This document shows, in pieces, positions 6,001 through 9,000 of a stretch of 21,084 nt of DNA (position 1 is the stretch's first letter; every line of letters begins with the position of its first letter). Source of the stretch: Candidatus Aenigmatarchaeota archaeon (GTDB lineage Archaea > Aenigmatarchaeota > Aenigmatarchaeia > Aenigmatarchaeales > JACQIB01). Position numbers: made by a program. The stretch covers positions 1 through 21,084 of the forward strand of contig JAWABM010000012.1 in assembly GCA_038999215.1 (NCBI GenBank). The letters run 5' to 3'.

Positions 6001-9000
6001 TGCTGTATTCCTTCTTAGCCAGCTCCATTATCTTCCTCGCTTCAGGCAGCCTGGACGGCTTGTCAGCAATACAGCGGAAAATGAGTGTCGGTTCGGAATC
6101 CTTGACCATACCGGCCCCGGTCGTGGCGAAGGGCTCGACAGCATAGGCCTCCCCCTCCTCCAACCTCTTGCCGGCCCCGTTCCTGACGTTCGGTATGACA
6201 TGACCGGCATGGAGGTCGTACTGCGAAAGCGAATGGCCAGTCAGGTTCGCGACGGGCTTGAAGCCCATACCTTTCGCCACATCCTCAATGGCGGCGCCGA
6301 TATCTGATATCCTCGTGCCGGGCACGAAGAGCGGAAGCGCGGCATCTAACATTTTCTTCGAGCACCTTATGAGGTCGTCCTCACCGGCAGGACGGACGGT
6401 AACGGCGGTGTCCCCTATGAACCCGTTGACATGCGCCCCGACATCGAGCTTGACGTAGTCGTTTTTGCCTATCACCATCCTGTCGCCTGCAACAGGCGTA
6501 TAGTGCGCGGCCACATCATTGATGGAGACGTTCATCGGGAACGCGGGCTTTCCGCCAAGCTCCCTTATCCTGGCTTCGGTCTTCTCCGCAATGTCAAGAA
6601 CGAGCGCACCCTCTTTCGCGAGCGCTGCAGCGTACTGCAGCGCCTGCGCAGCTATCCTTCCCGCCTCCTTGTAGCATTTGATTTCATCCGTCATTTCATC
6701 AGCTGCCCCTCAGTGACGCCGAACACCTGCAGCACCCTCAGGGCCGCAGGCAGGACCTGCTTCTTCGCGTAGTAATCGAAATCTATCTGGCCGAGCTTCG
6801 GTCCGGGATAAGGCTCCGCCCTTTCGGACAGCGGTCCGCCGCCCTTCACGATGACGAACCTTATTATCATCCCCCGGCTGACCGCTAGGCCAGCCGCCCT
6901 CATCTTCCTGGCCGCTGCCAGATGAGCGGTCTTTGCCTTGTACTGGCTCATGGGCTTTGCGAGCTGTACGTTTATCACAAGATCTTCCATTTTCACCTTG
7001 CCTTCCCTGACGCAGGCCAGCATGTTTCTGGCGTAGCTCACCGCTTCGCTTTTCTTTTCAAGAAGTATGAGCTGCAATATCCTTTTCTGCACCTCCTTGG
7101 CGAGCCTGCACCAATCCTCCCTCCTGGTCTCGAAGCCGCGCACGAGCAGCTCGCCCTTCCTGTCCATGAGCGCGTACTTCTTCTTCGCCCCTCTGCCTTC
7201 CTTGGTCGTGACGAACAGACCGCGTTCATAGTAGCCGCGGAACTCGAGCCTTATCACGCCGGGCAGCTCCCTGTTCACCTTTTTGAGCAGCCTCTTCGCT
7301 GAAGAGGCTCCACACTTGAGGAAGACGGCGTCAGTGTCGGCGTATATCACCTCAAGCCCGGCCTTCTCGGCGTCGCTTATGACCTTCTTTATGTAATAGC
7401 GCCCGAATGCGGCTATGGATTCCGCAATCTTAACATTGTAATAAGGGCTTCCCCTGTAACCGAAGTAACCATAGGCTATGTTCGCAGCAAGCTTGAGCTG
7501 CTGCTCCCTCTTAGCTAGCTTCTCGTCATATTTCCTCTTAAGCTTCCTCTTAACCTCCCACCGCTCCTCCAGAATCTTCCTGAGCCTCTTCGGTATGTCG
7601 CCTTCCGGCTTCTTGCAGAACCACCTGTCCTCGAAGCCTGGCACGCGGTCCTTTTCGCTGCAAGGCTTGCAGAAGGTCTTGACGTCTATGTTGTGCGTTA
7701 TTATGATGCTCGGATAAAGGTTCCTGAAATCAAGCACGGACAGGCCCTTGTGCATGCCAGCCTTGGGCTCCTTCACGAAGCCGCCTTCGTACTGCGTTTC
7801 CATGGGAAAGAGTTGTGGACTCGGACTTATAAAAACTTCCAGAAAGGAGATGTTGCAGCATCCTATAAGCTTTAAATACATGCTCAATTGTCTTACAAAG
7901 TAGAAGCGACACCCGGATATTACAACTCGAGGTATGTTCAAATGCCAAAACCGAAGAAAAAGGAGCAACCCAAGAAGGAAGCGAAAGAGATGAAGGAAGA
8001 AGAAAAGAAATGGGACGAGGAAGAGGAGATCGTGGAGGAAGAGGCGAACATGGAAGAATCCGAAGGGGCCGCGGAAGAGACGGAAGAGGAAGAGGAGTCG
8101 GAAGAAGAATGGTAGGACCTCCGCGCTTGCGGTGAAAATCACCGCCTTTTCTATTTCTATTTTTGTTCATAGGCAGCTATGCCGCCTTCCCGCAGAAAGC
8201 GCTTAAATCCTTTCATTCCTCTATTCTTGCAATGAAAATCATCGCACGAGACGCCGTCTACAAGTGCAGGAAAGGCTGTAGCGAGTGCTGCACCCTGAGG
8301 CTGGAAATAAGCCCGATAGAGGCCGTGGAAATATCAGAGAAGTCCGGAACGACAGTAAGCACGTTCATAGATTATATCAGCGGGTTTGGCTCGCTCAATA
8401 TGGCCAAAAAACTGAACAGCGAGGGCATTCCGGAATGCTTCTTCCTAGACAAAGGAAGATGCAAAATAAATAACTACAAGCCGATAACATGCAAGCTCTA
8501 TCCGCTCGGCCTGAGAATGTCATACGGCGGGAAAGAAGTGCTGTGCGAGCCCATAGACGTGCAAAGGAAATCCTGCGAAGAATGCACAGACAAGGACTTC
8601 GAAGAAAGAGCGATCAAGTCCGAGGAACTCGTGGCAATCGCGGAGAAGATAATGAAGGGCAGGGCGGCCATGATAAAGATGGGAAAAGAGGCGGTCTTCG
8701 AGGGAAGGCTCATCGACAGGGCGATGGAAATATACAGGAGCATGAGCCTCGAGGAAGCGGCGGCATTGCTTAAGGAAAAATGCGGAGAAATAATGGAGTA
8801 CAACATCTCTTTCTGATAAAAATTTTCCGCAGAAAATTATAAATATAATCGAAAACAATCATAATGCACGCAGAAATCGATGCTGATAACCATATGAACG
8901 GGAAAAATTCGAACGGAACGCAGAAGAAGATGAAAGTGCTCATAGTTTCTCATGAGGCCCTTGGCTCGGACCTGGCGTGGCAGCTCACGAAAGAAGGCCA

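Follow-up and report, generated by a model that had tools for sequence, protein, structure and literature searches.

A conserved polymerase-only family-B DNA polymerase in the Aenigmatarchaeota

The window analysed here is a whole 21,084-nucleotide stretch (positions 1 to 21,084 of contig JAWABM010000012.1) from a Candidatus Aenigmatarchaeota archaeon, the genome of which (G000; 571 kb, 24 contigs) is 88% complete. On its reverse strand (7803-6691) lies an open reading frame whose translation gives a protein of 370 amino acids plus a stop codon, hereafter P0001. The features of the locus are collected in Table 1; residues outside P0001 are numbered as in KOD polymerase, and papers are cited by their PMC numbers.

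Table 1. Features of the polymerase locus and motifs of the encoded protein (positions in the window)
Feature	Position	Strand	Remarks
Methionine aminopeptidase gene	5810..6694	-	overlaps the polymerase stop by 4 nt (ATGA); adjoins both kinds of B3 gene, short and full-length
Polymerase-only PolB3 gene, 370 aa	6691..7803	-	palm, fingers and thumb; Pfam, AlphaFold model, structure match
KKKY motif and thumb loop TRREDW	7111..7185	-	V611R and R613E relative to full-length B3
Motif C (YADTD)	7330..7344	-	both aspartates present; 36/36 clade members
Motif B, fingers helix (KLAANIAYG)	7468..7494	-	K487, N491, Y494 and G495 kept; clade-specific S492I and L489A
Motif A (SVLDFRNLYPSII)	7702..7740	-	D25 corresponds to catalytic D404 of KOD, Y30 to the steric gate Y409; S407 replaced by N
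YxGG motif, residues 5-8	7780..7791	-	opening of the polymerase half; every short form begins just before it
TATA-like box TTTTTATAAG	7826..7835	-	23-32 nt before the ATG; same spacing in 13/15 short loci
Divergent 57-aa Lys/Glu-rich ORF	7942..8115	+	its antisense shadow is the source of the stop-free 121-codon upstream extension

The sole Pfam match of P0001 is PF00136 (residues 3-359), and the presence of motifs A, B and C in a palm-fingers-thumb fold identifies it as a polymerase domain of this family. In alignment it covers residues 383-752 of the KOD/Pfu-type PolB, so that its N-terminus lies at the YxGG motif, shortly ahead of motif A. Of the three domains described as common to family-B polymerases (N-terminal, exonuclease and polymerase; PMC7544198), P0001 possesses the polymerase domain alone; the Pfam match and the extent of the alignment both bear out the genome-wide survey's note, according to which the polymerase motifs are kept and the N-terminal and proofreading domains are missing. 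The C-terminal PIP-like tail is absent as well, as is the C-terminal zinc motif docking DP1, a mark of the B6-aenigma replicase. The AlphaFold model of P0001 built from 17 aligned sequences has a mean pLDDT of 91, a quality for which an alignment including full-length relatives was needed, the single-sequence model having failed (pLDDT 46). When matched to KOD ternary complexes (38% identity to KOD), the model gave a TM-score of 0.84 over the query and 0.43 over the target, which means that P0001 is half of a normal enzyme.

The stop-to-stop frame of the polymerase comprises 491 amino acids, 121 codons of which precede the ATG. The caveat raised earlier, that this extra part is unlike PolB, was borne out, since HHalign found no likeness to the PolB N-terminal profile (probability 0.1%). 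The extension is free of stop codons because it largely shadows the acidic 57-aa ORF on the opposite strand, which is Lys-rich at its start, Glu-rich at its end and has a GAGGT ribosome-binding site. The TATA-like box begins 26-33 nt before the ATG in 13 of the 15 short loci, as compared with 0-2 of 15 in five other 8-nt windows; among 242 long ORFs of this genome the same window was also the richest (61 versus 5-35). This fixed spacing supports Met1 as the true start, and the box suggests a dedicated promoter and a putatively leaderless mRNA for the short polymerase. As for the sequencing runs, four short, identical pieces came from one DNA run and none from the RNA run, which is uninformative on expression or on the start region.

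Of the 13 short loci with a 3' flank, 10 have the methionine aminopeptidase gene no more than four genes downstream, compared with 9 of 33 long loci, many of the latter with short flanks. The neighbours of short polymerase genes are not repair genes. Elsewhere on the contig an Endonuclease III-like glycosylase (13896-14546, +), an Lhr helicase (10254-13076, -) and a RadB-like gene (200-706, -) are encoded; an Lhr gene directly precedes the polymerase in loci L129, L133 and L134 and in the full-length locus L223.

A survey of 207 loci found a relative of the polymerase in 203 of them, namely 164 long genes, 13 cut by contig ends and 26 short frames. Three of these frames, L040 and L047 (one gene) and L175, were dropped since an N-terminal half lies directly upstream in another frame, i.e. 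they are frameshifted full-length genes; the 23 short frames kept correspond to 15 distinct proteins, encoded at 15 distinct loci with a stop upstream. Among 61 genomes, frames of 371-383 aa with 56-72% identity occur in six others, most of the remainder having about 730-840 aa, in agreement with the earlier report of short frames with the same start in six genomes against about 800 aa in most others. A profile search restricted to proteins of 200-665 aa returned 82 entries, 36 of which (36 protein clusters, 42-78% identical to P0001) have isoleucine at the position of S492 and are treated here as the clade. The isoleucine was encountered in none of the 145 long loci, none of the best 120 of 512 longer hits and none of 145 new representatives that an exhaustive search supplied. 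All 33 clade proteins that reach motif A, which are database entries known without genomic context, have starts that fall between -1 and +26 residues relative to one and the same Met.

PolB fragments of similar size are common in the databases, and two mosaic genes discussed below could be assembly chimeras, both of which would fit an assembly artefact or a decaying pseudogene. Against this stand the shared start, the stop upstream in the 15 loci, the isoleucine signature, the shared promoter spacing and purifying selection, and together they practically refute it. The dN/dS ratio is about 0.05-0.15 in ten unsaturated short pairs versus 0.04-0.11 in four unsaturated full-length pairs. These are rough values, dS being close to 1 or higher, and saturation removed one further short pair and three long ones; the short clade is under purifying selection. 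P0001 is a naturally conserved polymerase-only family-B polymerase, made up of palm, fingers and thumb, with its catalytic residues intact.

In a quick 97-row tree the short forms make up one side of a branch (SH-aLRT 100), and in a 59-row tree of residues 3-285 the clade has a support of 100/100 and a stem of 0.37. The clade groups with full-length Aenigmatarchaeota B3 and apart from B6, in trees without B1 and B2 sequences among their rows; among solved structures, Thermococcales PolB comes closest to it. In a 39-row set, AU tests rejected two alternatives, one uniting the short forms of a family with the full-length gene of that family (p 1.6e-85) and one uniting all short forms with the full-length genes of family f3 (p 0.002), results to which long-branch effects may have contributed. 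The former result goes against regarding the short form as a truncation of each host's resident orthologue. The short clade is instead an old, separate lineage of single origin within Aenigmatarchaeota PolB3. Among the short frames listed for a phylum-wide sample of 301 genomes, those of the clade are confined to this one order, 17 weaker matches lying outside the listed rows. One short-clade gene (L050) is found on a 3.5-kb contig in a bacterium-labelled bin; the adjoining gene is shared with archaeal loci, and the contig is probably mis-binned. A viral or mobile origin was rejected, the best phage and viral matches having at most 31% identity.

A profile of the N-terminal half, built from 20 sequences, finds the full-length orthologue in all four control genomes having one (E 1e-93 to 1e-206). 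In the eight short-form genomes, all of them incomplete (81-93%), it detects the B6 polymerase only (E 1e-59 to 1e-72) apart from two weak unrelated hits. The earlier finding that this half recovers nothing but the replicative PolB in five of five genomes is thereby widened to 8/8, and the separate N-terminal gene which the survey's note had allowed for was not found in these incomplete genomes, i.e. the complementary half that would define a split PolB was seen in 0/8. In the full-length orthologues the exonuclease motifs are intact in 19-20 of 20 and the uracil-pocket positions partly conserved, the V93 equivalent being V, I or L in 18 of 20, so that working domains were given up.

Stand-alone exonucleases are present in two of the eight hosts and do not track the short clade. 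In the genome studied here, a very diverged exonuclease-like gene missed by the N-half profile (C3:27098-28516) belongs to an equally diverged exonuclease and dead-polymerase pair (C3:25748-28516). This exonuclease was not found in the seven other short-form genomes, and it occurs in G020, which has full-length B3, in G123 and in G006, where the pair forms one 897-aa frame; on this distribution the pair was rejected as an obligate partner of the clade. In G040 an unrelated 180-aa PF10108 exonuclease is encoded, the PF10108 model finding a stand-alone gene in one of the eight short-form genomes.

It could be supposed, on account of the incomplete genomes, these two exonucleases and the split B3 genes known in the order, that P0001 is only part of a split polymerase, its partner with the N-terminal and exonuclease domains being supplied in trans by a gene at another site. 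This deserves very little credence, given that no cognate half was found in 8/8 genomes, the distribution of both exonucleases and the changes A485Q/S together with the loss of W504, which point to a lost interface; in KOD, A485 packs on the N-terminal domain (PMC5718519).

Several loci with exonuclease-like or split genes were also encountered. The C3 pair belongs to L228 (4746-9569), where the exonuclease-like gene (473 aa), the dead polymerase-like gene (449 aa) and a divergent 666-aa ORF without a Pfam family form an insertion that separates the EF-1alpha region from the rpl3 operon; their distribution is patchy and they are probably mobile. The PF10108 gene of G040 (L224:409-948, contig C34) adjoins a transposase-like frame, and genes of similar size occur in G016 and G031. 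In G032 (L220:2580-4962, contig C18) an ORF for a 381-aa LAGLIDADG endonuclease, on the opposite strand, interrupts a short-clade gene immediately after motif C and leaves frames of 178 and 210 aa; this is either a polymerase reduced for a second time or a gene that broke recently. Full-length B3 is split after motif C, at the same place, in two genomes of one genus (L221:1484-4667 in G016; L222:1446-4701 in G021), the two parts being separated by a peptidase S51-like ORF; P0077-P0082 from the databases resemble halves that arose by this same split.

The equivalents of D404, D540, T541, D542, K487, N491, Y494, K592, Y594, R612 and W615 are present without exception wherever a clade member extends over the site (33-36 of 36), R460 is kept in 34/36, and the YxDTD form of motif C is universal. 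Among the positions that full-length B3 conserves, the clade keeps 66, relaxes five and switches one. Its changes are clustered, and three of them fall at residues contacting DNA or nucleotide: S492I (36/36), where the nascent pair stacks, R613E/G (36/36), on the primer, and Q483E (29 members), near the triphosphate, could each lower activity. A485 is replaced by Q, S or G in all 36 members, and in P0001 Q483E and A485Q precede motif B. The steric gate is Y in 26, L in four and F in three of 33 members, P0001 keeping Y409. The Leu variants (P0019, P0024, P0028 from L005, and P0056) and Phe variants (P0026, P0027, P0033) lie on several branches; neither residue was found at the gate in 120 close long proteins, and these variants are candidates for ribonucleotide use. 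A PIP-like tail, scored with the PIP box motif on the tail only, occurs in 5 of 30 short versus 85 of 119 long proteins. The median net charge is +41.5 in the short forms versus +16 in the same region of long B3.

This charge, and the impairment that Q483E, R613E/G and S492I could bring about, might be taken as signs of a catalytically weak or silent DNA-binding protein with a structural role. It looks quite improbable, since all metal- and triphosphate-binding residues are invariant at 42-78% identity, unlike in dead PolBs, and the charge shift is partly compositional, two long congeners reaching +26 and +34.

Within the order, 42 genomes comprise eight with the short form, 25 with full-length or N-half-bearing B3, nine in which neither was found and none with both, counts in which kin are not independent (genus g13 holds one short and three long) and all short-form genomes are incomplete. 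This distribution means that B3 is dispensable in the order and that the short and full-length forms are alternatives. In G036 (L004), the upstream gene is shared with the full-length locus of its congener G015 at 90% DNA identity up to the start codon, and the two loci also have a downstream gene in common. Between the L004 polymerase and the G015 full-length gene, the first 280 residues differ at 37% of non-synonymous sites and the last 77 codons at 8%, dS being 1.47 in the first part versus 0.22 in the last 77 scored codons. The same switch is seen in L133, in another neighbourhood, and both genes carry a PIP-like tail of the full-length type. The shifts in identity and dS, rather than the poorly supported thumb-end tree (41 for the mosaics with f3), argue that the last part of both mosaics derives from the full-length type, recombination having happened twice. 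Chimerism of both assemblies is possible and would need two events at the same point. The shared locus and the mosaics would be equally expected if the gene had been replaced laterally in place or if ancestral copies in tandem had undergone a deletion between them. The same locus, the two recombinations and the absence of co-occurrence indicate that the short form replaces full-length B3.

The only other recognisable PolB of this genome (C2:6422-9082, 886 aa) has exonuclease motifs and a C-terminal zinc motif and matches the B6 group, which was proposed as the PolD replacement in this phylum (PMC7544198, PMC12680538) and is paired there with DP1 (PMC12680538). In the short-form hosts B6 is retained, and its exonuclease motifs are intact. 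All eight short-form genomes have PCNA, PolD DP2 and PolY were not found in any of them, and UDG was found in two of five, which is uninformative. PolY was detected in seven of the 61 relatives (G005, G043, G044, G048, G052, G053, G059), in six of which no B3 was found, hinting that B3 and PolY may substitute for each other in the phylum, on the evidence of about four lineages in which kin are not independent.

The survey's note had proposed an error-prone polymerase for repair or lesion bypass. The accessory, non-replicative position of the short B3 stands, and so do the predicted blindness to uracil and lack of proofreading, which follow from the missing domains, uracil recognition being located in the N-terminal domain (PMC7544198). 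Error-prone lesion bypass is unsupported. A specialised bypass or mutator polymerase acting in place of PolY or PolB2 would agree with the loss of the exonuclease and the uracil pocket, with the failure to find PolY in the eight short-form genomes and B3 in six of seven PolY genomes, with the changes at A485 and L489, which are sites mutated in engineered relaxed-specificity enzymes (PMC9738464), and with Leu or Phe at the gate in 7/33 members. It nevertheless seems unlikely: full-length, proofreading B3 is equally anti-correlated with PolY, so that the pattern is not peculiar to the short form; Dpo2, though exonuclease-dead, is accurate at insertion and poor at bypass (PMC8764526); S492I adds bulk, not space; and P0001 retains Y409. 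The change E664V, considered as a parallel to the engineered Kod-RI and rejected, is uninformative because E664 is not conserved, long B3 having mostly T there (108/145).

A role akin to that of Pol alpha, in which the short B3 would lay a short DNA stretch on RNA primers before the B6-DP1 replicase takes over in PolD-less cells, would be in keeping with the missing exonuclease, the mostly missing PIP tail, the failure to find DP2 in the hosts, the relaxed gate of some members and the B6-DP1 pairing. We consider it decidedly improbable, as neither B3 form was found in nine of the 42 genomes, some of them 89-92% complete, so that the job is not essential, and the short-form neighbourhoods have no link to primase or replication genes.

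The preferred reading, to which a probability of roughly 0.6 is given, is that the short B3 would be an accessory polymerase that stands alone, does not proofread, mostly works without the clamp and serves to fill gaps or repair short patches, the repair role being drawn from gene content. One lineage of Aenigmatarchaeota PolB3 lost the N-terminal and exonuclease domains once and kept the catalytic palm-fingers-thumb core, which was presumably adapted to work alone. Beside the proofreading B6 replicase, it would serve as the accessory polymerase of the cell, being distributive, unable to proofread, not stalled by template uracil and mostly devoid of a clamp-binding tail; it may fill short gaps and extend primer ends during repair, and may spread or persist by being interchangeable with full-length B3, whose locus it occupies. 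The assignment to repair is suggested by the dispensability of B3, the interchangeability of its forms and the use of B3 in repair in T. kodakarensis (PMC7544198).

Among known systems, the short clade shares the palm-fingers-thumb fold and canonical motifs A, B and C with archaeal PolB3 (KOD, Tgo, Pfu and P. abyssi PolB as well as full-length Aenigmatarchaeota B3), and it nests among the last of these, with which it also shares the methionine aminopeptidase neighbour. It differs from them by the lack of about 415 N-terminal residues, including the exonuclease and the uracil pocket, by the mostly missing PIP-like tail, by the fixed S492I and by the frequent Q483E, A485Q, L489A, V611R and R613E/G. 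Split PolBs of Methanothermobacter and Nanoarchaeum (Kelman 1999, as cited in PMC3984812) likewise have gene products far below 800 aa, but reportedly their splits lie within motif C or behind it and each genome encodes the two halves, whereas the short clade is cut before motif A and its other half was not found. A C-terminal proteolytic fragment of Sulfolobus PolB1 is also said to keep polymerase activity; this report was not used as evidence.

The best functional analogy is PolB2, including Sulfolobus Dpo2 and the bacterial G2, which is an accessory family-B polymerase without proofreading beside a proofreading replicase (PMC8764526, PMC11791011, PMC7544198). Although Dpo2 has no exonuclease activity, its misincorporation rate is 1e-4 to 1e-5; it is poor at insertion opposite lesions and extends mispaired ends distributively (PMC8764526). 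Damage-induced extension from mismatches and lesions is a further trait of the PolB2/G2 group. PolB2 retains a decayed exonuclease domain, described as "absent or much more diverged" (PMC8764526), and usually lacks the first Asp of motif C (PMC11791011), whereas the short clade has deleted the domain entirely, has the canonical YxDTD and derives from B3. PolB2 is moreover accompanied by iRadA and PPB2 genes; judging from neighbour clusters, no shared neighbour of this type exists in the 15 short loci. Eukaryotic Pol alpha and Pol zeta are family-B polymerases that also work without proofreading (PMC7544198), but they are large multi-subunit enzymes that keep an inactivated exonuclease fold. 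Motif C, the B3 ancestry and an exonuclease deleted rather than decayed indicate that the short clade belongs to neither PolB2 nor Pol zeta, despite the shared lack of proofreading.

The expectation that a conserved half-size PolB would be new still holds, as no description of a polymerase-only B3 was found in the literature searched, a search beyond whose reach most subscription papers lie, and four clade motifs are absent from the examined part of the supplement of PMC7544198. The clade may have been overlooked because truncated sequences were removed from two surveys (PMC11791011, PMC12680538). In the ESM Atlas there are PF00136-only clusters of 365-520 aa, some labelled as fragments and some viral, and other polymerase-only PolBs may exist among them. 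At about 42 kDa, the short B3 would be smaller than any natural PolB with a canonical site that we found described. A bolder idea, tentative and on balance doubtful, is that this self-sufficient enzyme has a nucleotide pocket re-tuned at A485, L489 and some steric gates towards relaxed sugar or lesion selectivity, and that it moves between archaeal genera by recombining into full-length polB3, thereby removing the proofreading and uracil sensing of the host's second polymerase.

Since the known non-proofreading family-B members keep a dead exonuclease fold, the natural deletion of both front domains sets this lineage apart, and it offers a direct test of whether palm, fingers and thumb are sufficient and of which changes compensate. 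The 36 natural variants also represent a compact scaffold homologous to the biotechnological enzymes KOD and 9N, with changes at A485, L489, S492 and Y409. For the organisms themselves, the short clade shows small-genome archaea without PolD and PolY paring down their second polymerase.
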